From a virus (lineage: Duplodnaviria > Caudoviricetes), in the IMG/VR virus record IMGVR_UViG_2627853630_000004, positions 11,340 to 75,339 of that record: 64,000 nt of DNA; one strand, given 5' to 3'. Shown one piece after another: positions 4,740 through 32,020 of the stretch. Below the pieces are notes generated by a model, which saw only the letters and a list, made by a program, of their open reading frames with translations, was not told the DNA's origin and searched no databases. Every line of letters starts with the position of its first letter. The stretch's first letter is position 1. Position numbers and translations under genes: made by a program.

Positions 4740-4750
4740 TTGCGATTTCC

Positions 4751-5245: not shown

Positions 5246-5256
5246 TGAATGCCTCG

Positions 5257-11339: not shown

Positions 11340-11369
11340 TGGTCACCTCCATGACAAAGAAAATAAAAG

Positions 11370-12142: not shown

Positions 12143-12550
12143 TCAATCATCAAATTTTAATTTATCATAATCATCATCGGCAGCCTTTCGCTGAGCTGCT
12201 AGATGAACTTCCTGTGCATTTCTTTCAGCCTCTAACTCAGCAGCATAGTTTGCTGCCTCTTTCGAAGCTTGCGCACATTGCACTTTCAAATCGTTTAACT
12301 GTTGTTGTAACTCATCACGCAAGCAACAGACAATGACATTCTTCCCTTCAATCCTTGCGCGCCGCTTTTGCATTGAAAAAAATTCTTTATGAACAATATC
12401 AAAAAATTGAGGCCAATAAAGAGGGGGATCATCTTCTAAGATGAAATAACGATCCCCCATACCTTCGTCTTCGCTACTTAACTCTCTATCTATACCTATG
12501 ATTTTCATACACAACCCTTGTTTATATTCGAAGGTTGTAATAATTATCAC
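12143..12550 (-). CDS. Hypothetical AT-rich moron protein (start may be the MKIIG Met)
   Basis: AT-rich ORF followed by two minus-strand terminator hairpins (about 12029-12100); coiled-coil C-terminus. Confidence 0.6.
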   Translation of the reverse strand: MIIITTFEYKQGLCMKIIGIDRELSSEDEGMGDRYFILEDDPPLYWPQFFDIVHKEFFSMQKRRARIEGKNVIVCCLRDELQQQLNDLKVQCAQASKEAANYAAELEAERNAQEVHLAAQRKAADDDYDKLKFDD

Positions 12551-17910: not shown

Positions 17911-18500
17911 GCGGCGTACTCCAGCAGTTGCGCGGCTGCGTTCTCTGCTGCCTGCTGAGTGGGGAAAGTATGGTAGAGGATGTAATTCCAGAGTACGTTC
18001 AGCACCGCTTTATAGAGTTCGCCGAACTTCAGATCATCCATTTTTGAAAACTTAATTGATTCGGGTTCGTTACGGCGGGTGCCATCGGGCATGTAAAACG
18101 TAACGTAGAATCCCGCTTCAATCGTCACCCATGATCTGAACGACTCGAACGATTTCACCGCCGTGATATTGATTGCTCGTTTCTGTGCAGTATCGCTGAG
18201 ATATTGATCGGCTAGTTCCTGAATTGTCCCTTCGTGGCCTGCATAGTAAGCAATCCATTTTACAAAACCGTTTACAAGGGCTTTATCAGCAGGAGATATG
18301 GCACCGCCGTCCGGTTCAAAGTAGTGAAAGCCGAGATTCAGGAGTGAGAAGAATTTACGATGAAATGCCGCGTTTCGCGCTTGCTTGAAATCGGCATAAA
18401 TAACCGCGCCCGTCTTTAGCTTCTTGACGAACTCGTTAGAATCAGGTGTGGCGGGAATTAATATTCCACCAGCTGACTTTACAAATGAATGCTGTGCCAT
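17907..18500 (-). CDS. DUF1367 family protein
   Basis: RNAAFHRKFFSLL, FRSWVTIEAG, SIKFSKMD, ENAAAQLL. Confidence 0.8.
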   Translation of the reverse strand: MAQHSFVKSAGGILIPATPDSNEFVKKLKTGAVIYADFKQARNAAFHRKFFSLLNLGFHYFEPDGGAISPADKALVNGFVKWIAYYAGHEGTIQELADQYLSDTAQKRAINITAVKSFESFRSWVTIEAGFYVTFYMPDGTRRNEPESIKFSKMDDLKFGELYKAVLNVLWNYILYHTFPTQQAAENAAAQLLEYAA

Positions 18501-18579
18501 TACCTATCCTCAGTAATGGCGCAGTTGCTTTGTTTGGGTTATCGGGTGTTCAGTCCGATGTGTTTATTGTACTGTATGT

Positions 18580-18861
18580 TTAGAAAGGTTTGTTAATAAT
18601 TCTCTGAAATTTATAAAGCTCATTCTCAAAGGTTTCAATCTTACTCTCTTTATCACTTACCTGTCCCGAGGCCTCATCAGCACAAATGAATGCTGCACTT
18701 AATTTATCCTGAGCATACTCACTAAGCGAGCTATTTATCTTATTTTTCAAACCATTAAAATTTGAAATATCATTTTTTGCTGATGATTTCGTATTGGATC
18801 TGGATATATTTCTTAACAATCTAGCTATTTCATTAAAATCACTTTCGTTTAGTTGATTCAT
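18580..18861 (-). CDS. Hypothetical very AT-rich protein
   Basis: 93-aa ORF with AGGAG SD. Confidence 0.6.
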   Translation of the reverse strand: MNQLNESDFNEIARLLRNISRSNTKSSAKNDISNFNGLKNKINSSLSEYAQDKLSAAFICADEASGQVSDKESKIETFENELYKFQRIINKPF

Positions 18862-18890
18862 CTCTGTTCTCCTTGTGACATGTCACAGAA

Positions 18891-19238
18891 CTATATATCT
18901 AATTTTATTTCATGCCACCCGCTTGTATTCCAGCAATCAGAATCACCGCTCATGCAGCATGATGCTACTGGCAACGACTCACCGCATTTCCCGCAGCATT
19001 GGCGGTTGAGCGACTGAATACGCTGGCGCACTCTGGCATCATCTTGCCGTATCAGCAGTTGGATATATTCATCCATGTCATAGGGTTCCTTACCCGGACG
19101 GCGTAGCACACAATTGCGGCGCAACATATCAAGTTCCTGAGCATCAAGATTCAGTTCCAGCTTGGTTACGCCAGCCTCCCGCTGGCGCTCACGTTGTGCT
19201 CTTTTACGTGCGGCGGCACGCTCTTTAGTGTCTGTCAT
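18891..19238 (-). CDS. Hypothetical phage protein with C-terminal Cys cluster
   Basis: Start ATG 19238 overlaps the methylase stop (ATGA); RKRAQRERQR and CGKCGESLPVASCC. Confidence 0.7.
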   Translation of the reverse strand: MTDTKERAAARKRAQRERQREAGVTKLELNLDAQELDMLRRNCVLRRPGKEPYDMDEYIQLLIRQDDARVRQRIQSLNRQCCGKCGESLPVASCCMSGDSDCWNTSGWHEIKLDI

Positions 19239-21403
19239 GCAGCCACCTGCCATGCGCAGTATTCGGGCAAGTTTGCAGCAACTAATGCCCTTGCCTCTGT
19301 TGGGCAGACGGCATTGCCGCAACGTGCTACCTGATCTTTCTGTGATATTGGGTTTCCATCTGGATCGCGATCGATAATGTAATCAGGCGGGAATCCTTGA
19401 GCGTTATACAACTCGCGTGGCGATAGCATCCGCATGCAAATATCGATGATGACGTAATCACCAACGCGCAGGTATTGACGCCGCGGGGCTGGGAATAGAT
19501 GGGGGTCATCAGGTAAATCACTGTACGCCTCAAACAGCCGAGCGCAGCACCATGCGTTATATCGTTGTTCGTCAGTTAATGGCTGTATTTCGCATTCAAC
19601 TTCAGTCAGTCCGAATCGATCCCGCGTCGGAATTGTGTGCATCGGTTCAGTGATAGAAACGCCGTCACGCTCATTGCCGTAGTATTTTGTCAGATACGCC
19701 TGAACATGCCCGACATGTTGACCACCAGCGGTGATTGTTGGTACCGGCTCTGTTGATTGCTGCCCATCTTGGCAGGTTCCACGCAACTTGATGAGGTGTG
19801 ATGAGCACAAGGAATGATGATCGACCTGAGTTACTGTATGCAGCGGTTCATCCATGCAACAACCTGGCCCAGAGTAACCACCGCCGTAATGCTTAATCAG
19901 GTTGGCTGCGATAACAGCTTTATGTGATGACGTCGGTACCGTGTCGTATGGCGCGTTAATGTCACGCGGTTTTCCCGAATACTTGGGGCCACCAGCACCA
20001 ACCAAAATTGCAGATAATAACTGGCTCTTTCCACCGCCCCCCGCAGTGACAGTTCCTAGCGGGGTATCTACGGGGTTAGCTGTGCTATTACCGAACTGAC
20101 GTACAACCACAGGAGCGGCAATACTAAATCCGTGCGCCTGCGTTATCGTCTGTAATGGCTCCCGCAACGATTGACCTCGGAAACAGTCGTACGCACTGCG
20201 ATTGCTGGTGTGATTACACTTAACGGCGAATGGCTCTATCAGCAGATGTTCCGCTTTGCTGGTGACGGTCGTAATGGGCTGATTTACGGAATACGACAGC
20301 CGGTCACCACCGAAACCAGTTTGCCCAATCCGCACGATATACGGCTCAGGGTTATTAATCACAAACCGATCCAAACCCCGAACGATGCGTTTTAACGTAT
20401 TGTCTGCCAGCGGCTTTTTCCGGCCTAAAATGGAACGTGTCGGTAGTGGCCAGTCAATGCAATCAGCAGCTGTTCGCCACGGTTTTAAATTGCCCTCGGA
20501 AAATTCCTTCGATCGTGGATCACCATACTCCGCTGCTGGCCACTCAACTGGCCGCCCGTCGCATCGTGCAACAACATACAGGCGCTTTCTGATAGTCGGC
20601 GCGCCAGACATGTACGCCTTGCGCTCCCTGTGATCAACGTTGTAACCCAAGCCCTTAACCAATTTTTTGGCATCAGGGCCGTTAATGTCGATATTCAGGA
20701 ATTCGCAACACTCAGCCAGCGCCGGATGATTCGCGGGAATGCCAGTGCTCAACATGCCAATAAACGCGTTAAATGTTTCACCTCTTTTGGCTGGGTCTGG
20801 GTAATAGTTACCCGCCTTTTCAACCAATGGCCCCCATGACCGGAACTCTTCAACGTTCTCCATCATCAGCACGCGCGGACGGGTCGCCAGCGCCCAGCGC
20901 AGAATCACCCACGCCAAACCGCGTATCTCCTTCTTAACTGGCGTGCCGCCCTTCGCTTTTGAGAAGTGACGGCAGTCTGGCGAAAACCAGCCGAGCAATA
21001 CAGGCAGACCACCCGTTGAGACAACCGGATCGACGCTGAAGATGTCTTCGGGGTAATGCAGCGTACGCGGGTGATTCATTGCGTGCATCGCCATCGCTAC
21101 AGGATTGTGATTCATTGCGATGTGCGGCTCGAATCCTAACGCTTGTTTGATGCCCTCGCAGCTCCCGCCGCCACCAGCGAAACCGACAACCACCAGCCCG
21201 TTTTCAACATCAGGCCGAGCGATTTCTATCGCTTGGCGCCGCGCCCATTTGTGAGCCGCCTTTTGAATGTCTGCCGGGTTTTCTCTGCGTAAAAACATTC
21301 CGTGCATTTCTGAGAGAAGCGCCTCTCGGCGCTCCGGTGATAATTGATGAACGGGTATCACGGATGAGGCGCATTGCTTAACTTCTGTAGGCCAATCACT
21401 CAT
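19235..21403 (-). CDS. DNA (cytosine-5) methyltransferase, orphan, with a large repeated target-recognition region
   Basis: Motif I FAGGGG, SPDC, ENV, RKR and C-terminal GNAV; repeated P(L/M)HT(V/I)T units. Confidence 0.9.
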   Translation of the reverse strand: MSDWPTEVKQCASSVIPVHQLSPERREALLSEMHGMFLRRENPADIQKAAHKWARRQAIEIARPDVENGLVVVGFAGGGGSCEGIKQALGFEPHIAMNHNPVAMAMHAMNHPRTLHYPEDIFSVDPVVSTGGLPVLLGWFSPDCRHFSKAKGGTPVKKEIRGLAWVILRWALATRPRVLMMENVEEFRSWGPLVEKAGNYYPDPAKRGETFNAFIGMLSTGIPANHPALAECCEFLNIDINGPDAKKLVKGLGYNVDHRERKAYMSGAPTIRKRLYVVARCDGRPVEWPAAEYGDPRSKEFSEGNLKPWRTAADCIDWPLPTRSILGRKKPLADNTLKRIVRGLDRFVINNPEPYIVRIGQTGFGGDRLSYSVNQPITTVTSKAEHLLIEPFAVKCNHTSNRSAYDCFRGQSLREPLQTITQAHGFSIAAPVVVRQFGNSTANPVDTPLGTVTAGGGGKSQLLSAILVGAGGPKYSGKPRDINAPYDTVPTSSHKAVIAANLIKHYGGGYSGPGCCMDEPLHTVTQVDHHSLCSSHLIKLRGTCQDGQQSTEPVPTITAGGQHVGHVQAYLTKYYGNERDGVSITEPMHTIPTRDRFGLTEVECEIQPLTDEQRYNAWCCARLFEAYSDLPDDPHLFPAPRRQYLRVGDYVIIDICMRMLSPRELYNAQGFPPDYIIDRDPDGNPISQKDQVARCGNAVCPTEARALVAANLPEYCAWQVAA

Positions 21404-21482
21404 GATCCACCACCTGATTTTTATCAGAGCGAACGACAGTCGCGCCTAGCACGTTTAATTGAGTGGTTGATAGCGTGGTCAT
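21396..21482 (-). CDS. 28-aa small ORF coupling into the methylase (not in ORF track)
   Basis: GAGGCAAGACCAAATG start; MTTLSTTQLNVLGATVVRSDKNQVVDHE; overlaps the upstream stop and the methylase ATG. Confidence 0.5.
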   Translation of the reverse strand: MTTLSTTQLNVLGATVVRSDKNQVVDHE

Positions 21483-21733
21483 TTGGTCTTGCCTCGTTTT
21501 TGGTCGTGATATTCGCGCCAGTAATTTAAGCGCGCTCTAAAATGTTCCCGATACTGCTCCGCTACCGTGTCCAGCTCTTTTTCAACGTTCCGGCGCAGGG
21601 CTTTTCCTGCTATGAGTTGATTTATTAACTGGTTGGCGCGCAGGTCTAGCCATTCCATATCCCTGAATTCCTGCGGCCACTCACCACGGTTATGAGGCAG
21701 TCCGGGCGGCAGGTAATCTGATTGCCCGGACAT
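21479..21733 (-). CDS. Hypothetical phage protein
   Basis: 84-aa ORF, GAGG SD, closely packed in the pR operon. Confidence 0.7.
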   Translation of the reverse strand: MSGQSDYLPPGLPHNRGEWPQEFRDMEWLDLRANQLINQLIAGKALRRNVEKELDTVAEQYREHFRARLNYWREYHDQKRGKTK

Positions 21734-21736
21734 GGG

Positions 21737-22123
21737 TTATGCCTCTATGGGTTTTATCGTGTCGAGAAGAAGACGGGCGCGAGTCGGACCACCAGCGCGG
21801 GTGCCAGTGTCCTTGTAATAAAACTCGCCAGTGCCAACCACCCACGTAGTCGGGGTTTCACGTAATTTAACCGTGCGTTCCCCGCCCACACGGACAACGG
21901 TTCCCGTGTGGGTTTTCTTTGTTGTCAGCCGTTTCTTACCTGACGTTTTCGGGAGTGGGGAAAATTTCGGCGCAACAACTTGCCGCGGCGCGGGAGCTGG
22001 CACGTACGGTGAGCGTGTGCGAGCGCGGGCGTTTGCGTTCATAGCCCAAAGAATTGGGCCGGTGTGGTCGCAGCCGTCATCGGTCATGAATGCGCGTGCG
22101 TAAATAACATCAGTTGTAATCAT
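21737..22123 (-). CDS. Hypothetical basic phage protein
   Basis: 128-aa ORF starting at GAGGCAAGACCATG. Confidence 0.7.
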   Translation of the reverse strand: MITTDVIYARAFMTDDGCDHTGPILWAMNANARARTRSPYVPAPAPRQVVAPKFSPLPKTSGKKRLTTKKTHTGTVVRVGGERTVKLRETPTTWVVGTGEFYYKDTGTRAGGPTRARLLLDTIKPIEA

Positions 22124-22169
22124 GGTCTTGCCTCTTTTTTTGGTCGGTTAAGCGCTGGTCAGGCGCGGT

Positions 22170-23582
22170 TTAAAATTCTTCAATCGGTTGTTTCTTGCTG
22201 TATCGCCTGTCTTTCTCCTGCCCTTTCTCTGCCAGCGATCGAGCCTCATTCGTTGGGATATTCTTGATATATCCATCAATCATCTGTGCGTACGCTGTTC
22301 CGCTCGGCCCCTCACGATTCAGTCGCACAATGAGTTCCATTAGGGTTTTATCCGCCTGCTCGTTGTAGACAGCGTCACGGTATAGCCCGATCCAAACATC
22401 ACAATCCTGTTCGATCTGGCCGGTGTCTTTACTGTCTGAGGGCTGTGGCCGTTTGTCCGCGCGCTCTTCCAGTTTTCGGTTTAACTGCGTCAGCAGCAGC
22501 ACGATGCAATCCAATTCTTTAGCCAGATTTTTTAAGCCGGTTGTTATCGCGCCGTAACTGATGTCGCGGCGTTCCGCTTCCTCGCCTTTCATCAGTGTTA
22601 GGTAGTCCACAGCGACTAAACCAACGTGCCCCCGCTGACGTTTAACTTTTCTGCTCTCTGCTACGATATGGGCAAGTGACACGCCCGGCGTACTGTCGAT
22701 CATCAGATTTGATTCGGACAGTTCAGCGGCTTTAGCCATTGCCAGCGCCATTTTTGAATCGTCGTATTCGCCGTTGTAAAACAGGTTTGAACTGATGAGC
22801 GCCTCTTGTGCGATCATTCGTTCAATAATCCCCCTGTCAGTCATTTCAAGGCTGAAAACCAGCGACGGGAGGCGATGATTTAATGCGAAATGCGTAGCGA
22901 TTTTGTTGTATGTCGCGGTCTTACCCATTTTCGGGCGTGCCCCAACCACGATGAGTGAGCCACGCAACGCTTGCTTAGGTGCCATGATTTCATCCAGCCC
23001 CTCAATGCCGAGCGTCAAGCCAGCTCCACCCGCAGGATCACTAAATCGGCGCTCAATCTCATCAACCCAATCGCCAACGACATCAGTCGCAGGCCGCAAC
23101 CCTCCCCTACGTCCAGTGCTGGCATGATCGACAACAGCGGTGATCATTTGCTGCACGCTGCTTAATCGGCTTTCGACTGTAGCGCCGCCGCTGGAGCTGA
23201 CGATCTCAATGCATGAGTAGAGTTTTTCCAGCGTATAGCGCAGCACTGCTTTTTCACGCACGATGCGAGCGTATGCGAGTGTGTTTGCAGCTACTGGCAC
23301 CCGTGCCATTTCAGCCAGATATGCCATTCCCCCAACGGTCACCAATTCACCGTTTGATTCGAGTAATTCACTCAGGGTTATCAGGTCGGTCGGCTTTTCA
23401 GATCGCGACAGTTCAACCAGACGACGATAAATAATTTGATGTGCGCGCAGATAAAACGACTCAGCTTTCAGCAGGGACATCACAGCATGGCGGCGCTCAT
23501 CGTCAGTATTCAGCATCAACCCGCCGATAACGGCCTGCTCTGCTGATGAGCTGTGCGGAACAACAGGAATATCATTGGTCAT
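22170..23582 (-). CDS. dnaB: Replicative DNA helicase (DnaB family)
   Basis: AEQAVIGGL, GARPKMGKT, FSLEM, VDYL, QLNR, QIEQDCD. Confidence 0.95.
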   Translation of the reverse strand: MTNDIPVVPHSSSAEQAVIGGLMLNTDDERRHAVMSLLKAESFYLRAHQIIYRRLVELSRSEKPTDLITLSELLESNGELVTVGGMAYLAEMARVPVAANTLAYARIVREKAVLRYTLEKLYSCIEIVSSSGGATVESRLSSVQQMITAVVDHASTGRRGGLRPATDVVGDWVDEIERRFSDPAGGAGLTLGIEGLDEIMAPKQALRGSLIVVGARPKMGKTATYNKIATHFALNHRLPSLVFSLEMTDRGIIERMIAQEALISSNLFYNGEYDDSKMALAMAKAAELSESNLMIDSTPGVSLAHIVAESRKVKRQRGHVGLVAVDYLTLMKGEEAERRDISYGAITTGLKNLAKELDCIVLLLTQLNRKLEERADKRPQPSDSKDTGQIEQDCDVWIGLYRDAVYNEQADKTLMELIVRLNREGPSGTAYAQMIDGYIKNIPTNEARSLAEKGQEKDRRYSKKQPIEEF

Positions 23583-24342
23583 TAGCGCGCTCCTCTTTCA
23601 CGGCGACATAGCAACGCTCAGTAACCAGGTAATCGATGTTTTTGCGTTTCCAGAATCCACCCCGCCCATTAGATCGGTCTTCCATCATCCAGCGGCAATG
23701 CACGGAGATATATTTCAAATAGGCCTGCCAACGCTCAGGAGTGAACTGGAATTTTTTCCAGAACGCTCGGATCGTTTTTTTTCTCGCGTCAGTCAAAATC
23801 TGAACGCGTGGCATGTCTGGAAGGGTTTCGTGGTACACATCCAGAATTTTTTGATAATCAATTTTTTCAGCTGGCGGATTATCTGCTGGTGGAGCAGGCT
23901 CGCCTGATTCACCAATAACAGGTTCATTGACTGGTTCAGAAGGGTGACTGGTTCTGGTGCCATCTGACGCCACAGGGGGTGTGCTTTCTGGTGGTACAGG
24001 TGGGTTTTCTGGTGACTCACCTGTGTTTTCTGACACCACAGGGGCTGTGATTTTTGGTGGCACAGGGTTATCGAGCGTCAGATAGTAAACGTTCGACGTG
24101 TTCCCCTTCCCATTATTCTCACCGAGCCTGTTTTCTTTTGACAGAAAACCCATTTTTATCAATGCGGTGATGTGTGCTTTAACGGCACTTTTGCTGCACT
24201 CGCACTGATCCGCAACATGCTGATATGACGGCCAGCACTCACCTTTGTCATTCGCGTTATCGGCCAGCTTAATGAGAACCAGCTTTCGCAGTGGGTTACC
24301 GACTTTGCGGCTCATGGCTTTTGCCATTAGGTTCATGCTCAC
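23572..24342 (-). CDS. Replication initiator (lambda O-like, N-terminal HTH)
   Basis: KLVLIKLADNANDKGECWPSYQHVADQCE; internal iteron-encoded linker; upstream of DnaB. Confidence 0.85.
   Translation of the reverse strand: MSMNLMAKAMSRKVGNPLRKLVLIKLADNANDKGECWPSYQHVADQCECSKSAVKAHITALIKMGFLSKENRLGENNGKGNTSNVYYLTLDNPVPPKITAPVVSENTGESPENPPVPPESTPPVASDGTRTSHPSEPVNEPVIGESGEPAPPADNPPAEKIDYQKILDVYHETLPDMPRVQILTDARKKTIRAFWKKFQFTPERWQAYLKYISVHCRWMMEDRSNGRGGFWKRKNIDYLVTERCYVAVKEERANDQ
23841..24070. other. Probable replication origin: iterons plus AT-rich tract inside the initiator gene
   Basis: Degenerate repeats about 21-24 bp apart (GTGCTTTCTGGTGGTACAGG, GGGTTTTCTGGTGACTCACC, GTGTTTTCTGACACCACAGG, GTGATTTTTGGTGGCACAGG) at about 23950-24070; AT-rich 23845-23868. 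Confidence 0.65.
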
Positions 24343-24343
24343 G

Positions 24344-24571
24344 CTACACCCCCAGCGATTCCGCTAACTGACGGCACGCATCCTGATATTCGTCCGGCGA
24401 TAGATTCATCTCACGCAATTCCGATTTGCGCTGTTCGTATTGCTCCCATACAGAGAGCGCTTCAGCCCTGCGGCCATCAAAGACAGGTTCAATATCACTG
24501 ACGCTGGCTGGTTCGCCATTCAGCAAAAAGCCGTTCCTGTACGTGATTCGAATTCGGATCCTGGTGTGCAT
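24344..24571 (-). CDS. Hypothetical phage protein; start reassigned to ATG 24571
   Basis: GAGGCAAGACCAATG SD-start; MHTRIRIRITYRNGFLLNGEP. Confidence 0.65.
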   Translation of the reverse strand: MHTRIRIRITYRNGFLLNGEPASVSDIEPVFDGRRAEALSVWEQYEQRKSELREMNLSPDEYQDACRQLAESLGV

Positions 24572-24593
24572 TGGTCTTGCCTCGCTATGCAAC

Positions 24594-25046
24594 TTATGCA
24601 ACTAACTGCTGAGTAACTGGCAACAGCGCATACATCGCCTCTGTCGCTTTATTTATTCGTTGTGACATGTCACAGCATCCGAGCAGCACAGCATTCATCG
24701 CTGTGGAAAATTCACGGATGGCCACTGCCGTCAGGTAGTTAACAGATCGGTCATTCTGCAAACGTGCCCGTCGTTCCCCCGGTAGAGCTGCAAGCATCAC
24801 CGGAGCCAGCAACTGGACTTTTCTCTGTGCTGCGCGTGAGTCACTACGCAACCAGCGGAAAATCTGCTGCCTGTTGTTATTTATCGATTTCCAGTCAGCA
24901 ACGCCGCGCTGCTCGATTTCATGCAGCCGGATATGTGGATCGCCACCAGCCAGAAAAAATCGTTTGGTTATCTCGATCGCTACAGTTTCCTGTCCTGCAT
25001 CAACCGCCCATGATTCGATCTCGTTCTTCAGCTCCTGAATATTCAT
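24594..25046 (-). CDS. YdaT-family CII-equivalent transcription factor
   Basis: Follows cro; NNNRQQIFRWL motif; YdaT-type TTGATT-N6-AATCA site directly upstream. Confidence 0.7.
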   Translation of the reverse strand: MNIQELKNEIESWAVDAGQETVAIEITKRFFLAGGDPHIRLHEIEQRGVADWKSINNNRQQIFRWLRSDSRAAQRKVQLLAPVMLAALPGERRARLQNDRSVNYLTAVAIREFSTAMNAVLLGCCDMSQRINKATEAMYALLPVTQQLVA

Positions 25047-25064
25047 TGCGTCTCCTGTCGCAAA

Positions 25065-25082
25065 TTGATTTTTGATAATCAG
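25065..25082. promoter_or_regulatory. YdaT-type operator (pRE-equivalent position)
   Basis: TTGATT-TTTGAT-AATCAG matches the TTGATT-N6-AATCAA repeat recognised by CP-933P YdaT. Confidence 0.7.
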
Positions 25083-25101
25083 ATTTACGCTGATATATCC
25101 G

Positions 25102-25296
25102 TCATTGTTTTCGGTACAGTTCCGGGTTGAATTTGAGTTCTCCGTTAGTTCTGATAGCGGCTTCTGTGGCTCGGCCTTTTGGGATTAGTTTTCCCTCTCG
25201 GGTTCGCCACTGATAAATAGCCTCAGTACTCACTTCAAAGAACTGAGCAACCTTCTCAACTGTTCCGAAATACTCTTCAATTTCGGTTGTAGTCAT
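25102..25296 (-). CDS. cro: Cro-like regulator (YdaS/DicC type)
   Basis: YFGTVEKVAQFFEVSTEAIYQW HTH; divergent from cI. Confidence 0.85.
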   Translation of the reverse strand: MTTTEIEEYFGTVEKVAQFFEVSTEAIYQWRTREGKLIPKGRATEAAIRTNGELKFNPELYRKQ

Positions 25297-25311
25297 TACG
25301 CCTCCCGTTAA

Positions 25312-25374
25312 CTAAGTTTGATTAGACATTAACACCTAATCAAACTTAGATCAACGAGTGCTAAGATAAGTTAG
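25312..25374. promoter_or_regulatory. Right operator: three CTAA-N6-TTAG sites with pR
   Basis: CTAAGTTTGATTAG (25312), CTAATCAAACTTAG (25336), CTAAGATAAGTTAG (25361); minus-strand TTGATC-17-TAATGT. Confidence 0.75.
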
Positions 25375-25384
25375 TTATTTTTAT

Positions 25385-26020
25385 TTGGTGCGCATGATGG
25401 AATCTGTAGGGCAACGAATTAAGCGATTACGAAAAATGACAAAAACGTCTCAAAAGGATTTGGGGCGCTACTGTGGTGTCTCTGATGTTGCTGTTGGTTA
25501 TTGGGAAAAAGACATTAACTCACCCAGTGGGGAGCCCGTTTCCAAGCTAGCCAAATTCTTTAACACCAGCGTTGACTACATTTTGTATGGCACGAAGTTT
25601 GAGGGTGAGTTGATCACTAGCGTTCGCAGGGTTCCAGTTCTTTCGTGGGTACAAGCTGGGTTATTCACTGAATCAACATCGGACCTTATTGATGATTCAA
25701 CCGAGTGGATTGAAACCGCAGCACCGCTATCAGGGCGAGCATTTGCATTACAGGTTCGTGGGGATTCAATGACTAACCCTAACGGGCTTCCCTCAATACC
25801 TGAAGGGGCGATTGTATTTGTTGATCCAGAGGTGGTGGCAGAAAGCGGGCGGATCGTCGTAGCGCGACTCAATGGCACATCAGAAGCCACTATTAAAAAA
25901 CTTGTTATAGATGGCCCAACAAAATTACTCGTTCCCCTAAACCCTCGCTACCCCACACTAACGATCAATGGTAATTGCATCATCATTGGCGTAGTTAAAA
26001 GCGTTCAGTACACTCTTTAA
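25385..26020 (+). CDS. cI: CI repressor, HTH plus S24 autopeptidase (start probably ATG 25394 or 25397)
   Basis: HTH; VQAG cleavage site; GDSM catalytic Ser; TIKKL catalytic Lys. Confidence 0.95.
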   Translation: MVRMMESVGQRIKRLRKMTKTSQKDLGRYCGVSDVAVGYWEKDINSPSGEPVSKLAKFFNTSVDYILYGTKFEGELITSVRRVPVLSWVQAGLFTESTSDLIDDSTEWIETAAPLSGRAFALQVRGDSMTNPNGLPSIPEGAIVFVDPEVVAESGRIVVARLNGTSEATIKKLVIDGPTKLLVPLNPRYPTLTINGNCIIIGVVKSVQYTL

Positions 26021-26051
26021 CCCTCCCTCAGCATAAGCGAAAAACCGATAA

Positions 26052-26102
26052 CTAAGTTTAATTCGGTTTTTTGTTGACATAAAATCTAAGTTAAATTAGA
26101 TT
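26052..26102 (+). promoter_or_regulatory. pL promoter with left operators
   Basis: TTGACA (26074)-17 bp-TAGATT (26097); operators CTAAGTTTAATTCG (26052) and CTAAGTTAAATTAG (26086). Confidence 0.8.
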
Positions 26103-26114
26103 AAATCCATCAAC

Positions 26115-26178
26115 AGCGAACAGGCAGGACGCCCACGAAGTAGCCGCTACCGGCGTATGAACAGGTAGATGATTCGCT
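26115..26178 (+). ncRNA. Structured RNA at the 5' end of the pL transcript
   Basis: Closing stem AGCGAA/TTCGCT enclosing a CTACC/GGTAG hairpin; non-coding. Confidence 0.4.
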
Positions 26179-26304
26179 AAGTAAGGCAAGACCAACCCAC
26201 GCCGCAGACCACGCTCTATGAGTGGCGACGTGGGAAAACAACCAGGCGCAGTTGCGCTGTTTGGGTAACACGTTCTGACAGCGGGAAAGACCGCAAATTA
26301 ATTC

Positions 26305-26380
26305 GGCCCCTTAGCTCAGCGGTTAGAGCTATCCCCTCATAAGGGATTGGTCACTGGTTCAAATCCAGTAGGGGTCACCA
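26305..26380 (+). tRNA. tRNA-Ile2 (CAU anticodon, ileX-like, lysidine type)
   Basis: 76-nt cloverleaf: GGCCCCT/AGGGGTC acceptor, ATCCC-CTCATAA-GGGAT anticodon arm, TTCAAAT T-loop, encoded CCA. Confidence 0.9.
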
Positions 26381-26383
26381 AAT

Positions 26384-26442
26384 TAGCGATCAGGTGATTA
26401 ACGGGTTTCCCTGCTCGTTACCCGGTTCGACTCCGGGCGCTA
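26384..26442 (+). ncRNA. Degenerate tRNA-like element
   Basis: TAGCG/CGCTA acceptor-like stem, perfect T-arm CCCGG-TTCGACT-CCGGG, TAACGGG/CTCGTTA stem; minimal D-arm; no CCA. Confidence 0.5.
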
Positions 26443-26477
26443 TTCGAAATCACGTTGCCATCGTGATAACTGCGAGA

Positions 26478-26536
26478 GGTGTGTAGTCATTGGGCGGTGT
26501 GGGTTTTTGATCTTTCCCCTATCCGCCAATTTTTTT
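26478..26536 (+). ncRNA. DicF-like small RNA or terminator hairpin
   Basis: TTGGGCGG...CCGCCAA stem with a pyrimidine-rich loop and T7 tail in the leftward early leader. Confidence 0.4.
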
Positions 26537-26694
26537 CGCAGACGTAAAAAAGCCCGCCTTGCGGCAGGCTTAGTTACCTCGGATAACCGACCAAAGTATT
26601 TCCGAGAGGTTTGCGGCGCTTACCAGGCGCCGCAAGGCAAGACCAATACCAACTAACGCTGATACTGATCAGCCGTGATTATACGAGGAACGCT

Positions 26695-26988
26695 ATGAAA
26701 GCGCCAGATATCACAACCACGCTGTACCTCCATCTCAACGCATTTACATCTGAACCGTTAATTTGCACATGTGACATGTCACATTTTGGTCATGCGTTAA
26801 TTTCAACGTGTGAAGTCTCCGTGCCATTTCCTGAAATAACCCCCGAATACCTTGCAGAACGCAAGATGTCAGCGTTACGGGAACAGCAACAAAAAATTCT
26901 CTCTGACGCTCAAATCAAGGCGAATGAACTGGAAGACCAGGTTCAGAAATTGCTGTGCGTTGAGCGCCAGAACAGCACCATTAAGTGA
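26695..26988 (+). CDS. Hypothetical early protein
   Basis: GAGGA SD before ATG 26695; coiled-coil C-terminus. Confidence 0.7.
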   Translation: MKAPDITTTLYLHLNAFTSEPLICTCDMSHFGHALISTCEVSVPFPEITPEYLAERKMSALREQQQKILSDAQIKANELEDQVQKLLCVERQNSTIK

Positions 26989-26998
26989 GGGTGAAGAC

Positions 26999-27283
26999 GT
27001 GGGTGATGTAGGTGATTACTACAGGGACTTAAAGCCGTACTTGAAGGAGCAGCGTCGAAAAGCACGAGATGGTGCATATGGGCGTATCAAAGCGTTCTTT
27101 GTTAGAAATGGTGTTCAGTTGGAAGAAGGAAATAACACACTAATTTTCCGCACACCACAAGGCACTGTTTGCTACTACCCACCAAGCCAGAGGATGCAGC
27201 ACAAGCAATTATGGAAAGAATGCAGCCCGACCAGCTGCATGAACTATGTGAAAAAACTAAGAACTGAGAGGCAAGACCAATGA
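26999..27283 (+). CDS. Hypothetical early protein (GTG start)
   Basis: GAGGG SD before GTG 26999; stop overlaps the next ATG. Confidence 0.65.
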   Translation: MGDVGDYYRDLKPYLKEQRRKARDGAYGRIKAFFVRNGVQLEEGNNTLIFRTPQGTVCYYPPSQRMQHKQLWKECSPTSCMNYVKKLRTERQDQ

Positions 27284-29463
27284 CAACAGCAACATTTACC
27301 GCTGCTTTCTTTCCAAAGAAATCAGCTCAAAAAAATGGCGCGATACCGCTAGCAACAGCGATCGAAGCAAAAAGCAAAAAACTGGCAGAAATGGCAGCAG
27401 TTATGCTGCTGGAAGAAACATTCCCTGGTGCCAGTGATAACTTCTTTAAACCAACCATCACCGAGGATTCGATCGGTTCACCCCGTCCAGCCGTTGGAAC
27501 GTTCGATGAGACATTCCTACAGGAAAATGAGCTGGTAGAGGGCGTCTGGCGGCGCATCGAGGCACCGACTCAGCCTAACGATCTCGTCGATTTCTCCACC
27601 CTCTCTTTGCGTGAAAAAATCGCGGCGTTTGCGTTGTATGCGCAATCTGAAATCACCGAGCATGAATTCTCTATGGTGTGTGATTATCTCGATCTGCCGG
27701 ATTTCGATGGCGATGGGGATACTAACGCAGACACGGACAAACTGATCCGCATACTCAGCGGTATTGAATTGTTGGAACAGGCTACTGACGAATTGCTACT
27801 CAGCGTAGTAAATGCCGTTAACGCTCGGTTCCCATCTATCGCAGATGTTGCGGATCGTGAAATTCTGGCCTTTGTTGATACGTTAACATGCGCGCCCGGC
27901 GAAAATGACACGCAAGCGACAAAGCCGCTGATCGCTGGATTGGATCGTGAACGCCAGTACACGCATACGCATCGAACATTAAACCGAGAAGTCGCCCTGT
28001 TCCTGGCTAACGACAACATCACAGATCCGTGGGAAGTAACAGAAGAACAGAAGGTTGCGGGTGATCAGGTGATGAAAAGCGGTGGTGACACGTATTCACG
28101 ATGGTCAACCGAGTTGAGTATGGTTGAGGGCGCGTTAAAAATCCCCCGCCCCATAGTTTTCATCTTGATAAATGAGGCCAAGAAACGCCCTGAATTATTG
28201 CTAGATGCAAACGCGCGTCAGCGGTTCGTTGTTGATTTTCTGGCTGAGCACACACCATCAGAAATCAAAGTTGAAAGCATGGGCAGCGGACGATTCTCTA
28301 TTGATGGCCTGATGGGTGAAACCGCATCAAATCAGGGAGAAAAAACGGAAGTGGTCAGCACGCCTGAGGCTGAAACAAAACAGACTGAAGCCGTTAACCC
28401 GCCAGCAGAAACCATTACGCAGCAGGCCAGCACCGAAGCTGGTGAGCAGATCATTAGCGACGGCACAGTGCAGCAGGCAAAAGAAGCGCTCGATCAGCTG
28501 GGGTACGGCGTTTACGCGACAGAAACGGACGCACCAGCACCAGCACCAGCACCAGCAGACGATTTTCAGCAAAGAGCTGAAGCCATTGAAGCCGAGATCG
28601 CCAAAAAACCAGACGCGGCACGCGGCAATCTATCTATTTGGCAGGGTGTCCAGAGAACCAACCCTGCGCACACAAGGCGGAAAGAAACATGGAAGTGGGT
28701 TAACGGAAAACAAGAGCTATTGCGCGCAGTCACTAGCGTCAACCCTACGTACCAAATAATGAGAGCCACAGAAGTATTTGGACCGTTCGGGTTAGGTTGG
28801 GGGGTGGAAGTTACAGAGGAGCGATTCGATCCCGGATTACCACTAATGGAGCCAGTCTTTGATAGCTCAGGGAGAGAGATAAACCGAAAACCCATGCGTG
28901 ATGGTGATGGATCACTTGTCAGGGCGCTAAACCACACAATGCAAATACGATTATGGTACGTGCTGGATGGTGTGCGCGGAGAGTTTCCCGCTTTCGGGCA
29001 TACGAAATATCTCTATGCAAAGAATAGTGGTGGCATGGTGTGTGACGATGAAGTCGGTAAAAAAAGCCTGACAGATGCCATCACAAAAGGGCTGTCAGCG
29101 CTTGGCTTTAGCGCCGATATCTACATGGGCATGTTTGATGATGACGAATATAAGAATAAAAACGAAGCGGAATTCGGCATCAAAAACGCAAGTGACAAAG
29201 CCGAAGACGTGGTGCGTTTTCGCTCTGAGCTGGATGAGAAATTCACACGGAACGCGGCAACGATGGAGACGACAGTCAGCGTCAATGAACTCAATAAGGT
29301 GTTTGGAGTTCTCGTACGTGAGATCGAAACACATCGTAAAGATGCAGAGGCAAAAGGTGATACAGAATACGCAAAATATCTATCTAGTCGTCTGCGTCGC
29401 CTTACTGAAATAAAAAGCGAGCGTGAAAAAGCACTCAAGGCCACTGAAGGGGAAAAAGCATGA
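27280..29463 (+). CDS. Recombination protein: RecE/ExoVIII-like N-terminal region fused to a Rad52/Sak-like annealing domain
   Basis: N-terminal KKSAQKNG and FFKP..TED as in RecE N-termini; C-terminal YQIMRATEVFGPFGLGWG and KKSLTDAITKGLSALGFSADIYMG. Confidence 0.65.
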   Translation: MTTATFTAAFFPKKSAQKNGAIPLATAIEAKSKKLAEMAAVMLLEETFPGASDNFFKPTITEDSIGSPRPAVGTFDETFLQENELVEGVWRRIEAPTQPNDLVDFSTLSLREKIAAFALYAQSEITEHEFSMVCDYLDLPDFDGDGDTNADTDKLIRILSGIELLEQATDELLLSVVNAVNARFPSIADVADREILAFVDTLTCAPGENDTQATKPLIAGLDRERQYTHTHRTLNREVALFLANDNITDPWEVTEEQKVAGDQVMKSGGDTYSRWSTELSMVEGALKIPRPIVFILINEAKKRPELLLDANARQRFVVDFLAEHTPSEIKVESMGSGRFSIDGLMGETASNQGEKTEVVSTPEAETKQTEAVNPPAETITQQASTEAGEQIISDGTVQQAKEALDQLGYGVYATETDAPAPAPAPADDFQQRAEAIEAEIAKKPDAARGNLSIWQGVQRTNPAHTRRKETWKWVNGKQELLRAVTSVNPTYQIMRATEVFGPFGLGWGVEVTEERFDPGLPLMEPVFDSSGREINRKPMRDGDGSLVRALNHTMQIRLWYVLDGVRGEFPAFGHTKYLYAKNSGGMVCDDEVGKKSLTDAITKGLSALGFSADIYMGMFDDDEYKNKNEAEFGIKNASDKAEDVVRFRSELDEKFTRNAATMETTVSVNELNKVFGVLVREIETHRKDAEAKGDTEYAKYLSSRLRRLTEIKSEREKALKATEGEKA

Positions 29464-30041
29464 GCAGAATTCACCACAACACGGCAATAGCAATTGCCGC
29501 TGATATGTCAAAGCTCCAAAGCCTACTGGAAGATTCTGAGGGTGGTATTGGAGAATTAACGCCAGAAATGATCGAAGACACAATGTCCGGTCTGGAAATG
29601 ACGCTGGCGGATAAATTAGATTCCGTTCTGGTTCACGTTAGAAACCTGGAAGGTCAAGAGGAAACCTGCGACAAAGAAATTAAGCGCCTAAGTGATCGTA
29701 AAAAATCATTCCGCAACCAGGCAAAGCATCTGAAGCAATACATTTTAAATTGCCTGCTGGCGGCCAATCTCGACAAAATCAAAACAACAAAGAACACATT
29801 TACTGCGCGAAAAGGCGTGGTAAATGTGGTTATCGATAATGAATCACTTGTGCCTGACGAATTCGTTAACTTACAGACAATCATAACGCCAGACAAGAAA
29901 GCCATTAAGGAGGCCATAGAATCCGCAGAGGCGGCGGTCGTGGAAATCACCGCGCGTGGCGAAACCCCTCCGGCTGAGTTGTTAAATCCGGTACCCGGTG
30001 CGCACATTGAAATCGGTGCGCGTTCTCTGCAAGTGCGGTAA
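29460..30041 (+). CDS. Siphovirus Gp157 (Mu Gam-like) family protein
   Basis: EIKRLSDRKKS, DKKAIKEAI, VPGAHIE..RSLQVR. Confidence 0.8.
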   Translation: MSRIHHNTAIAIAADMSKLQSLLEDSEGGIGELTPEMIEDTMSGLEMTLADKLDSVLVHVRNLEGQEETCDKEIKRLSDRKKSFRNQAKHLKQYILNCLLAANLDKIKTTKNTFTARKGVVNVVIDNESLVPDEFVNLQTIITPDKKAIKEAIESAEAAVVEITARGETPPAELLNPVPGAHIEIGARSLQVR

Positions 30042-30076
30042 CGGCTGACCACCGTATAGCAAGCGAGGCAAGACCA

Positions 30077-30253
30077 ATGCTAAAAATGAGCGCGCAGCGC
30101 GGGGACGTTATTCATATTGTTTTTGCTGATGGCCGGAATGGAATGATCGCAGTTCAATCACGCAGTGTGCTGGCGATTCATTTTCCGCCAGATGTGAAAA
30201 TAACGCGTGAACGTCGCCAGCAGGAAAAACTGATTAACGATAATCAGAAATAA
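30077..30253 (+). CDS. CsrA/RsmA-fold RNA-binding protein, 58 aa (not in ORF track)
   Basis: MLKMSAQRGDVIHIVFADGRNGMIAVQSRSVLAIHFPPDVKITRERRQQEKLINDNQK; M1, L2, G9, I14, P37, V40, R44, E45 match E. coli CsrA without gaps; GAGG SD. Confidence 0.75.
   Translation: MLKMSAQRGDVIHIVFADGRNGMIAVQSRSVLAIHFPPDVKITRERRQQEKLINDNQK
30230..30247. promoter_or_regulatory. Second YdaT-type operator (pI-equivalent position)
   Basis: CTGATT-AACGAT-AATCAG upstream of the small ORF, xis and int. Confidence 0.6.
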
Positions 30254-30300
30254 CCCGCCATTAGCAATACCGTGTGACCTCCATTTTACAGGGGGTCACA

Positions 30301-30507
30301 ATGCAAGTATGGAAACCGGGCAAGTGCCTGTTATCTGAGTTCGATATTAAAATCGGTCGGCTGTCTGCAAGCGTAAGGAAGACCACTCTAACGCAACAGG
30401 ATATAGACCAGTCTTGTGCAGCAGCCGACGCAATCATTGATAAATTAAGGCAAGACCATGACCGACCTGTTAACCGACGACGAGCTAATAGAACTGACAG
30501 GCTATAA
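30301..30507 (+). CDS. Hypothetical small protein
   Basis: AGGGGG SD before ATG 30301; MQVWKPGKCLLSEFDIKIGRLSASVRK. Confidence 0.6.
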   Translation: MQVWKPGKCLLSEFDIKIGRLSASVRKTTLTQQDIDQSCAAADAIIDKLRQDHDRPVNRRRANRTDRL

Positions 30508-30673
30508 GTATGCGTCGAAGCAACGCGCCGCTCTAACCCGATCCGGCATTTCGTTTATCACCCGTAGGGATGGGCGACCCAGCGTCACATGGGCGGCAAT
30601 TAATGCCAGCCTATCCACTGTGAAAGCTGAGCAATTTAAAGACGTTGAACAGCCTAATTTTGATGCGATTTAA
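30458..30673 (+). CDS. xis: Excisionase (DUF4224 family)
   Basis: LLTDDELIELTGYK..SKQ..L...GI.F..RRDGRP; EQPNFDAI; directly before int. Confidence 0.8.
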   Translation: MTDLLTDDELIELTGYKYASKQRAALTRSGISFITRRDGRPSVTWAAINASLSTVKAEQFKDVEQPNFDAI

Positions 30674-30675
30674 TC

Positions 30676-31701
30676 ATGGCTCGTAAACGTAAAGATCCCC
30701 GCGATAACGCATTACCGCCACGCGTATATCGCGGGAAAAGTAAATATGAATTCCACCCGATTGGTGGCGGCTCTATTTCACTATGCCCTCTCGATTCCCC
30801 CATTCCACTAATCTGGGAGAAATACGACGCGGCAAATAATTATCGCGAGGAAAAATTTACTCTGGAACGAATGGCCGGGCGATTTATGCAATCACCAGAC
30901 TTCCTCGATCTCGCGAGTGAAACACAAAAGGACTACCGGAAATACTCTGCGAAAATAATTCCAGTTTTTGGGGGGATGTCGCCGGATTCGATTAAACCTG
31001 AACACATCAGGAAATACATGGATAAACGGGGCGTGAAAAGCAAGACGCAGGCGAACAGAGAAAAGGCGTTTCTTTCGCGAGTATTTCGGTGGGGATACGA
31101 GCGGGGGCTATGTAAAGGCAACCCATGCAAGGGCGTTAAACAGTTCAAAGAGGTGGCGCGAGATCGTTACGTGACTGATGACGAGTATAACGCCCTGTAC
31201 TCCGTCGCAGCTCCATTTGTCCAGGTGGCTATGGAAATAGCCTATCTGTGTCTCTCACGGCAGGGGGATGTTCTCTCGCTGACTGAGGGGCAAATATTAG
31301 ATCAGGGGATTTTTATCGCTCAGGGAAAAACGGGCGCAAAACAAATCAAGGCATGGACGGACAGGCTGAGAGCCGCTGTAACAAATGCACGTAACTTGCC
31401 AATAAAACCGGGCATCAGCAGTATGTACATAATCCATCAACCGACCGGAGGGCGCTACACTCGCGACGGATTCAACAGCCGCTGGCAGCAAGCCAAAGAA
31501 GATGCGGCCACGGCGTTCCCACACTTGAGCTTTGATTTCACTTTTCACGATCTCAAGGCTAAAGGGGTTTCAGATCTCGATGGGACGTTAGCAGAAAAAC
31601 AGGCAATATCGGGACACATGACAATCAGCCAGACAGCACGATACGACCGAAAGATACCGATCGTTCCTGTTGTGGGTGGTCAGAATAAAAATTCAAAATA
31701 A
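30676..31701 (+). CDS. int: Tyrosine integrase of prophage 1
   Basis: RQGDVL, KTG, FHDLKAK, SGH and RY catalytic motifs; next to the tRNA fragment. Confidence 0.95.
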   Translation: MARKRKDPRDNALPPRVYRGKSKYEFHPIGGGSISLCPLDSPIPLIWEKYDAANNYREEKFTLERMAGRFMQSPDFLDLASETQKDYRKYSAKIIPVFGGMSPDSIKPEHIRKYMDKRGVKSKTQANREKAFLSRVFRWGYERGLCKGNPCKGVKQFKEVARDRYVTDDEYNALYSVAAPFVQVAMEIAYLCLSRQGDVLSLTEGQILDQGIFIAQGKTGAKQIKAWTDRLRAAVTNARNLPIKPGISSMYIIHQPTGGRYTRDGFNSRWQQAKEDAATAFPHLSFDFTFHDLKAKGVSDLDGTLAEKQAISGHMTISQTARYDRKIPIVPVVGGQNKNSK

Positions 31702-31729
31702 TTGCATATTCACCAAACACGCAAAAATC

Positions 31730-31751
31730 ATATTAGGAAGAATATTAGGAA
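31730..31751. repeat. Probable integrase arm-type sites (ATATTAGGAA twice)
   Basis: Direct repeat between int and the att core. Confidence 0.55.
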
Positions 31752-31766
31752 AGGCGGTTTTAGGTA

Positions 31767-31789
31767 CAAAAAAACCGCCTTTCGGCGGT
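31767..31789 (-). terminator. Terminator downstream of the tRNA-Leu 3' end
   Basis: ACCGCC-GAAA-GGCGGT followed by T7 on the minus strand. Confidence 0.75.
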
Positions 31790-31835
31790 CTACGACATTG
31801 CACATAAGTGCTTGTTTTAATTCGTATTAAATCAA

Positions 31836-31890
31836 TGGTGCCCGGGGCGGGACTTGAACCCGCACAGCGCGAACGCCGAGGGATTTTAAA
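31836..31890 (-). pseudogene. leuZ: 3' half of tRNA-Leu(TAA), leuZ-type: att junction between the two prophages
   Basis: Minus strand TTTAAAATCCCTCGGCGTTCGCGCTGTGCGGGTTCAAGTCCCGCCCCGGGCACCA; similarity stops at the anticodon loop and the 5' half is absent. Confidence 0.9.
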
Positions 31891-32020
31891 AAGTTACACC
31901 ACATCAAATAAAACAATAGGTTAAGTGATATCAAATGGTTGCGCATACGCAATAACACGAAATTTCACGCCACTCCTGTTTTTGCTGCCACCGAAAAACG
32001 AGATTCCGCCACTACAATTA

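Follow-up and report, generated by a model that had tools for sequence, protein, structure and literature searches.

The 64,000-nt window analyzed here (positions 11,340 to 75,339 of the IMG/VR provirus record IMGVR_UViG_2627853630_000004) carries eight exact copies of an 11-mer, AGGCAAGACCA. This motif is the shared (G)AGG Shine-Dalgarno (SD) sequence and spacer of a set of delayed-early genes, distributed over both divergent early operons of ZF40-like temperate phages, and the genes that bear it serve replication, recombination, excision and methylation. It is most likely targeted by a small structured antisense RNA, predicted opposite one of the copies, and not by a CsrA-like protein. A sequence-only reading of the same DNA had proposed that a phage CsrA homologue binds the motif together with upstream hairpins, and had given a target for a small RNA (sRNA) as the fallback. 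Overall, that interpretation is partly supported, and comparative data from related prophages favor the fallback.

The motif and its conservation at translation starts

In shuffled sequence the motif occurred on average 0.03 times, with 0 of 100 shuffles reaching eight copies, which reproduces the chance expectation first put forward; the full 75,339-base provirus record holds the same eight copies and none besides. Allowing up to two mismatches yielded 20 matches where 15.4 were expected, so there is no halo of degenerate copies in the window. Three minus-strand copies lie left of a cro-like gene (25102-25296, minus) and five plus-strand copies lie right of cI (25385-26020, plus), with the change of strand falling between the two genes. 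All eight are therefore on the transcribed strand, and the gene calls bear out this part of the earlier description. The motif copies are given below with the four hairpins named earlier, each of which was found where it had been placed.

21484..21494, minus: motif copy 1, SD-spacer of a 28-codon open reading frame (ORF; ATG 21482, end 21396)
22123..22133, minus: motif copy 2, ending on the first base of the start codon (ATG) of the gp16-like gene (21737-22123)
22152-22166, minus: hairpin GCGC-CTGACCA-GCGC, upstream of copy 2, where AACCGACCAAA is also found
24572..24582, minus: motif copy 3, immediately 5' of the ATG of the gp13-like gene (24344-24571, phrog_2465)
26184..26194, plus: motif copy 4, in the conserved non-coding leader of a PL-like promoter, at no gene start
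26635..26645, plus: motif copy 5 (the cis copy), in the 5' untranslated region (UTR) about 50 nt ahead of the gp08-like start
27220-27240, plus: hairpin ATGCAGC-CCGACCA-GCTGCAT, 5' of the exonuclease start
27269..27279, plus: motif copy 6, immediately 5' of the ATG of the 727-aa exonuclease gene (27280-29463)
30041-30055, plus: hairpin ACGG-CTGACCA-CCGT, 5' of the gp05-like start
30066..30076, plus: motif copy 7, immediately 5' of the ATG of the 58-aa gp05-like ORF (30077-30253, phrog_2482)
30397-30416: the fourth of the hairpins named earlier
30448..30458, plus: motif copy 8, ending on the first base of the start codon (ATG) of the DUF4224 excisionase-like gene (30458-30673)

Six of the eight copies have an ATG 0-1 nt after the motif or overlapping it by one base (ATGs at 21482, 22123, 24571, 27280, 30077 and 30458), and the part of the motif at SD distance from the ATG is AGG. 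The genes behind these copies are, in the same order, the 28-codon ORF, the gp16-like, gp13-like and exonuclease genes, the 58-aa gp05-like ORF and the DUF4224 excisionase-like gene. While the ATG positions reported before hold, two of the names do not: the supposed recombinase is an exonuclease (phrog_2489), and the supposed xis product is a DUF4224 protein. The first of the six starts also needs qualification, for its ORF (21396-21482, minus) has only 28 codons and overlaps the start (21403) of a 722-aa DNA methylase gene. In Pectobacterium phage ZF40 this motif copy stands before gp18 (278 aa), behind which come gp19 and gp20; a tblastn search of the window with ZF40 gp18-gp20 gave no match, and these genes appear to have been lost from the window phage. 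The gp13-like gene stands ahead of the replication initiator gene, and copy 8 lies within the 3' end of a gp04-like ORF. Copy 4 is a candidate further target or decoy site, and leader copies are also present in relatives.

The prophage region is 85.5% identical to ZF40 over 69% of the 10.8 kb queried. ZF40 carries seven exact copies of the motif at orthologous places, within flanks that differ, and a one-base variant at its exonuclease start; a term search of the accessible text of the ZF40 genome paper returned no mention of the motif, an SD or a ribosome-binding site (RBS) (PMC3391216). A scan of IMG/VR for the motif followed by ATG found at least 119 stretches. Two or more exact copies were present in 40 of 127 loci and, over all loci collected, an ATG begins at offset -1 to +5 from 622 of the 707 exact copies. 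The families behind the motif are led by the gp13-like proteins and the exonuclease (102 loci each), followed by gp05-like (57), a Cys-rich protein (35) and gp16-like (25), with two types of excisionase (24 and 21 loci) and further families as well. Many of the multi-copy loci are distant relatives whose exonuclease, cII-like and gp13-like proteins are about 36%, 50% and 60% identical, respectively, and the 11-mer stays exact despite such divergence, as at an exonuclease identity of about 36%.

A second element accompanies the motif. The pentamer GACCA occurs within 60 nt upstream in 43% of 236 unique motif-plus-ATG contexts, compared with 4% of 4768 background windows, an approximately tenfold enrichment that peaks at -30 to -11. 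Its complement, TGGTC, is found upstream of 0% of the starts against 6% of the background. Because GACCA is enriched and TGGTC absent, the second site has the polarity that RNA pairing would require. Motif and second element alike are thus real features that have been conserved, as has their association with translation starts. Both the RNA-level signal at starts and the two-site architecture (an upstream GACCA loop and an SD-spacer motif) that had been described from this DNA alone thus extend far beyond the window phage.

The taxonomic range was assessed with a longer pattern running from CCGACCAAAG to the motif, which found at least 119 stretches in IMG/VR and 44 in contigs sampled at one genome per species. 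Of these 44, 31 come from records that represent 10 enterobacterial genera, another, complete in its architecture, comes from a record titled Martelella, and 12 are in other phyla; those among the last group that were in the matches listed lack the architecture, and by our own arithmetic about seven chance matches are expected. As judged from these records, the motif is common to ZF40-like prophages of the 10 enterobacterial genera. The Martelella record (L154, titled Martelella alba) has a complete enterobacterial-type element with motif and gp08-like start, and is possibly a misassigned contig. A megablast search of a Providencia-type locus against named phages gave no match, and a word-based protein search returned only close relatives. 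One locus retrieved in a protein-guided search (L270) lacks the motif and was left out.

The placement of AGG at SD distance also invites the reading that the translation machinery itself recognizes the motif as an extended or specialized RBS, through rRNA, protein S1 or a phage-modified ribosome, much as has been proposed for the start-associated sequence (SAS) of Cluster K mycobacteriophages. The SAS paper, in the part available, leaves open whether SAS acts alone or with an RNA or protein partner (PMC3203893). For the motif studied here we consider recognition by the machinery highly improbable: of the eight copies in the window, two stand away from gene starts, complementarity to the 16S rRNA 3' end (by inspection) ends at AGG, and the minus-strand RNA gene described below would be left unexplained.

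A predicted antisense RNA gene opposite the cis copy

On the strand opposite motif copy 5, we predict an sRNA gene with the following parts, all on the minus strand.

26546..26671: predicted antisense sRNA gene, about 126 nt, opposite the cis copy, with its counterpart at about 5207-5364 in ZF40
26683-26678: -10 element TATAAT of the predicted promoter, overlapping the gp08-like SD region of the opposite strand
26670-26641: 5' hairpin, holding the UGGUC half of the anti-motif
26645-26635: anti-motif (seed), the complement of motif copy 5
26635-26611: hairpin (fold prediction)
26607-26577: hairpin with a loop complementary to AACCGACCAAAG (fold prediction)
26571-26550: terminator, with a U tail to 26546 (T run), called on the minus strand only

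From 5' to 3', the predicted RNA consists of a hairpin, a single-stranded UUGCCU(CUU) that resembles an anti-SD, two hairpins with UUGGUC loops, and a terminator with its U tail. The UUGG of the loops presumably matches YUNR, a loop motif of antisense RNAs that pair fast. The predicted RNAs, 61 unique sequences in all, have lengths of 113-128 nt. On the plus strand, all true instances share the same layout of an A-run, a short G+C hairpin, a T-rich stretch, a hairpin with a CCGACCAAAG loop, a hairpin with a GACCAA loop and the motif, which stands about 35-50 nt from the gp08-like start. The trinucleotide that follows the cis copy is ATA in the window; other lineages have ACG, or an ATG that opens a tiny ORF which is not conserved; since this codon varies, translation from the cis copy is not what is conserved. 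Of 84 unique sequences, 83 have a TAnnnT hexamer as -10 element at a distance of 21-33 nt 5' of the anti-motif (TAAAAT in 39, TATACT in 17, TATATT in 14, TATAAT in 10 and other spellings in 4).

The strand on which the structure is conserved was read from two sets of counts. In the first, which does not depend on a covariance model, each helix was anchored and either kind of purine-pyrimidine mispair was allowed. Over 61 unique elements, the terminator helix has 434 Watson-Crick pairs, 18 that form G-U on the minus strand only and 0 that form G-U on the plus strand only; the corresponding numbers are 545, 9 and 5 for loop hairpin 1 and 659, 33 and 11 for loop hairpin 2. The 5' hairpin, in which the motif end GACCA(AUG) pairs with a CTGATC-like arm downstream, has 381, 127 and 4 such pairs in 48 unique sequences, with 7 mismatches.

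The second set came from a covariance model built on eight sequences with a hand-set structure, which matched all 63 of 63 sources at full length and on the strand predicted; the match in the window is at 26546-26670 (minus; 56.1 bits, E 6.1e-10). In the resulting alignment of 65 sequences, 98.4% of cells pair, compared with 82.5 ± 0.5% after shuffling (0 of 500 shuffles reach the observed value) and 34-49% when partners were slid, although this alignment was fitted to the minus-strand model, which favors pairing and tells to that extent against the result. Both-sided changes occur in 21 of the 29 pairs. Read as the plus strand, the same columns pair in 87.7% of cells, and G-U cells number 200 for the minus strand versus 4 for the plus strand. 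The anchored counts, being independent of the model, agree with the model alignment. The comparison shows a predicted structure specific to the minus strand, with its terminator and -10 conserved; covariation lends strong support to the putative RNA family, and we consider the minus-strand RNA gene very probably real. Two other approaches were discarded: plain MAFFT alignment with RNAalifold missed the two inner hairpins and misplaced indels, and was replaced by the anchored counts and the model alignment, and a comparison of minimum free energies between strands (minus more stable in 53 of 61) was set aside as biased because the minus strand is G/U-rich.

The element and the motif occur together. 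Of ten multi-copy records that had been recovered by the motif only, seven contain the exact element and two more contain it with one changed loop base, and the tenth, in which it was not seen, is a 54%-complete fragment. They also change together. A profile search with the gp13-like protein and a search for related loci led to a sister lineage of three proviruses (L271-L273; 97-100% complete), in which the stretches collected hold no canonical 11-mer. In its place AGGAAAGACC occurs 5, 6 and 6 times, the layout and the strand switch being unchanged, and their cis copy has the same change, so that the RNA found by the model reads GGUCUUUCCU. There are thus two seed alleles, with C or A at motif position 4. 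Since all copies and the cis copy changed jointly, the RNA gene and the starts evolve as one system.

Rfam 15, searched with window positions 18000-32000 at E≤1, matched only a tRNA and, weakly, a plastid UTR on the opposite strand of that tRNA. Literature searches with the motif or its complement as strings showed only unrelated primers among the 15 of 50 matches listed, none in a phage context, and a literature search found no paper on this RNA. Likewise, the accessible text of a 2025 review of phage sRNAs describes nothing of this kind (PMC12197685).

Most of the predicted RNAs begin at or near a GATC (Dam site) in the 5' arm of the first hairpin (about 26667-26670 in the window). The U of this GAUC wobble-pairs with G, where a C would make a perfect pair; these phages encode large DNA methylases. 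In L244, a second, divergent copy of the antisense RNA gene (12180-12317, plus; 38 bits) lies about 1 kb from the first, over that phage's leader motif copy, with its own TATAAT, two UUGGUC loops and a terminator. Some phages may therefore carry two such RNAs. An alternative identity for the locus, a type I toxin-antitoxin pair formed by the mini-ORF and the antisense RNA 5' of the gp08-like gene, was dropped, as inspection showed that the gp08-like protein does not resemble a small hydrophobic toxin.

Possible readers of the motif

The complementarity of the predicted RNA to each start covers 11-17 nt, and on balance we favor its action in trans on the motif-bearing starts, as sequence comparison suggests. 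The RNA would pair with the SD, the spacer and often the AUG of every motif-bearing mRNA, and its UUGGUC loops would kiss the GACCA loops that lie 10-30 nt 5' of the starts. Such pairing would block initiation of translation for the whole gene set; we infer that the direction is repression, and the block would probably act in the lysogen or during its establishment. PL read-through over the locus, together with the leader copy at 26184, would match the RNA perfectly or nearly so and, as counter-targets, titrate it once the prophage is induced. We offer a wider proposal tentatively, as a possibility for which the odds are somewhat short of even: an RNA-based master switch, in which one sRNA gates all delayed-early translation, loop-loop contact serves as a second key, PL read-through is the antidote, and the seed alleles form orthogonal classes that confer translational heteroimmunity.

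Transcript data bear on the RNA at a homologous Xenorhabdus locus (L165), where 9 of the 12 listed sequencing runs (8 recorded as RNA) cover the stretch wholly or in part, and run X10 contains none of it. Two runs from a single study each have a contig at L165:3990/3995-4230, with a depth of 21-25 versus 4-7 for its neighbors and with no contig at 3924-3989; parts of L165 free of contig cover in runs X5 and X6 are no evidence of silence. The model places the RNA at 3980-4096, and the left end of the contig is 10-15 nt from the predicted 5' end, which gives a weak hint of a matching transcript start. An insertion sequence with transposase-like ORFs (L165:~4109-5500) lies directly 3' of the antisense RNA terminator and separates the element from the PL side.

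Several points weigh against an antisense RNA that acts in trans. The L165 contigs show neither strand nor true ends, the right end at 4230 is past the terminator (~4096), and one run from another study extends over the entire stretch. The -35 element is weak (TTGTGC or worse), and a consensus scan called no minus-strand promoter in the window. In the predicted fold, half of the seed (UGGUC) is locked in the 5' hairpin. RNAduplex gave -56 to -72 for the targets and a mean of -48 (standard deviation 11) for controls, which is no separation. One-mismatch variants of the starts are wobble-compatible in 28 of 42 unique contexts; taken, by our own reading, as distinct gene-variant events at interior positions, about 6 are compatible versus 6 that are not. 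The joint change of copies in L271-L273 would also be expected for a protein reader with altered specificity.

The last of these variant counts, with no clear wobble bias once related contexts are merged, would also suit an antisense RNA that is real but whose action is confined to cis, its targets being the gp08-like 5' UTR and PL read-through. The starts would then share a favored initiation cassette, spread and held uniform by recombination at gene boundaries or by selection for an efficient, unstructured, A/C-rich spacer. The RNA does overlap the 5' UTR, its -10 overlaps the gp08-like SD, and the motif lies at module boundaries, beside genes that differ between phages. An efficiency cassette, however, needs no exactness at 11 of 11 positions, and gives the cis copy, followed by ATA or ACG in several lineages, no reason to keep the 11-mer. 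It likewise leaves unexplained why cis copy and starts changed together in L271-L273 and why GACCA loops upstream of the starts match the UUGGUC loops, and we judge action confined to cis to be quite unlikely.

Proteins of the CsrA/RsmA family achieve two-site repression through a short motif displayed in a loop and a copy in the SD region, and the sequence-only reading had applied this logic to the window, with the 58-aa gp05-like ORF as a CsrA homologue that reads the motif. The core here is GACCA, not GGA, and GGA is depleted upstream of the starts (30% vs 48% of background windows). In a more general form, a protein would read GACCA in the loops and in the SD-spacer, and the minus-strand RNA would be a separate cis regulator or a competitor; candidate readers could be the gp05-like protein, the gp08-like protein (encoded right after the triple-GACCA element) or the gp13-like protein. 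In favor of such a reader, GACCA is displayed in loops with covarying stems, both in the element and upstream of starts, the gp08-like and gp13-like genes are present in the motif-bearing loci sampled, and 54 of the 57 element loci that extend 5 kb or more downstream also have the gp05-like gene.

Searches with the 58-aa ORF did not reveal a CsrA relationship. Against Pfam, no family matched at E≤0.01, and CsrA (PF02599) was absent even at E≤10, as were CsrA entries in a profile search of PDB sequences at the same limit. The CsrA model found the host csrA in 5 of 5 prophage-carrying genomes and no match at the prophage; at least two of the prophage loci, L169 and L170, encode the 58-aa ORF and are rows of an alignment of 22 sequences (A1). 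Comparison of A1 with five host CsrA sequences by hhalign gave a probability of 2.2% over 14 columns. Foldseek gave no match at E≤0.001, and VIA-align gave a best Z of 3.9 without listing CsrA, TRAP entries being tied among unrelated folds. Invariant columns of A1 are M1, L2, D18, G19, G22, R29 and P37. R44, in strand 5 of CsrA, is the RNA-binding arginine; the aligned position is S, E, C or a gap in 18 of the 22 rows, and R44 is thus not conserved.

The only pointers to CsrA are the order of secondary structure and a language-model match. CsrA proteins have five beta strands and then a C-terminal helix, and they form an intertwined dimer. The AlphaFold2 monomer (pLDDT 84.7) has five strands (2-6, 11-15, 21-25, 30-34 and 41-45) and a C-terminal helix (49-57), and the ESM Atlas search scored 0.85 to a CsrA cluster (59% of members CsrA) and 0.91 to an AbrB/MazE-like cluster, which we treat as leads only. 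A distant relation of fold may exist, as these models suggest, while CsrA membership is not supported, and CsrA homology was rejected as a working reading on the sequence, profile and fold searches and on R44. The motif in phages that lack the ORF, which the sequence-only reading had named as refuting its proposal, does occur: a 100%-complete provirus of 40,347 bp (G002) and the Xenorhabdus genome that matches it (G001) keep six clustered motif copies each and have the gp05-like gene nowhere. A protein reader also leaves unexplained the 200 minus-only G-U cells, the minus-strand terminator and the conserved -10, and an 11-mer exact at about 36% protein identity would be unusual for the site of a small protein. 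Together, these considerations make a protein reader unlikely in our view, and an antisense RNA remains the reading that we prefer. Among the five host genomes, two encode second, divergent csrA paralogues (G013:C1:3369376-3369534 and G016:C4:96273-96425), 59% and 57% identical to the main copy.

Known systems and the PL leader

Trans-acting enterobacterial sRNAs have a conserved seed, a Rho-independent terminator with U tail, and several targets at translation starts; unlike these, the RNA described here would have targets that share an identical 11-17-nt sequence, and the predicted regulator and its targets are located on one mobile element. The CI RNA of satellite phage P4 is a comparable system. 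The c4 RNA of phages P1 and P7 controls one operon (icd-ant) and is processed from the same transcript, whereas the RNA predicted here lies opposite a single site and would reach 5-8 starts distributed over the two early operons. In the parts of the sources available, c4 is described as a small structured phage RNA, with complementary sequences thought to lie in loops, that binds its target mRNA around an RBS and blocks translation, as proposed for the present RNA, and it defines the immunity specificity of related phages, so that the C/A seed alleles would parallel P1/P7 heteroimmunity (PMC12197685, PMC8198154). Phage lambda OOP and P22 sar are likewise short antisense transcripts in early operons that tune the lysis-lysogeny decision; as far as the accessible text of the review goes, they act on the overlapping gene only, with no identical set of trans targets described (PMC12197685).

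A near parallel to the motif itself is SAS, with its extended form ESAS. In Cluster K mycobacteriophages this asymmetric repeat, some 13 bp in length, precedes the start codons of non-structural genes by a few nt. According to the available part of the SAS paper, the repeat has one orientation, an SD core and mostly ATG starts, about half of the sites have an upstream inverted repeat, a few are not at starts, and function and partner were left open (PMC3203893). The SAS sequence, GGGATAGGAGCCC, and its actinobacterial hosts differ from those considered here, which makes it an analogue and not a member of the same family; its authors found little support for the ESAS hairpins, whereas the upstream stems studied here covary and have a candidate partner RNA (PMC3203893).

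If the proposed mechanism is true, a single small RNA would govern a gene set by way of one identical, portable RBS, in a compact arrangement found in nature, and the mechanism would add a post-transcriptional layer to the lysis-lysogeny decision in prophages of Pectobacterium, Serratia, Yersinia, Proteus, Providencia, Morganella, Xenorhabdus and Photorhabdus. Start-associated repeats have been unexplained since 2011, and the candidate mechanism is testable and may extend to mycobacteriophage SAS. The two natural seed/target alleles would be a ready-made orthogonal pair for engineering translational control.

The antisense RNA gene and its cis copy are embedded in the region between cI and the gp08-like gene, which has two landmarks on the plus strand.

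26074..26102, plus: PL-like promoter 3' of cI (TTGACA, 17 nt, TAGATT), conserved in ZF40
26695..26988, plus: gp08-like gene (phrog_2479), start codon ATG at 26695, preceded by a GAGGA SD that belongs to it

Alignment with ZF40 shows indels that break every frame from the PL-like promoter to 26695, and the DNA upstream of 26695 is therefore non-coding. The GTG start annotated for ZF40 gp08 (L002, 4919-5407) is probably too far upstream, the conserved start being the ATG after GAGGA. The GACCA hairpins were also considered as lambda-type nut sites, an idea that was dropped because they precede many genes.

A hairpin in the PL leader (GCGG-GAAAGA-CCGC, 26281-26294, plus), just 5' of the terminator and represented in other lineages by GCCCG-GAAAGA-CGGGC or GCTCG-GAAAGA-CGAGC, is reminiscent of boxB-type hairpins in antitermination, but the analysis identified no N-like protein. 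A tRNA gene with anticodon CAT (26305-26380, plus; 68 bits to the Rfam tRNA model) separates the PL leader from the terminator. Its place is taken by gp09 in ZF40, which marks it as a cargo slot, and in most relatives the leader runs straight into the terminator. In the ZF40-conserved block 3' of this slot, a T-arm-like stretch, GGTTCGACTCCGGGCGC (26424-26440, plus), which ARAGORN did not call, may be a tRNA remnant or a relic of an attachment site. Two plus-strand stretches, 18518-18539 and 26245-26266, the latter in the PL leader, are identical at 20 of 22 positions.

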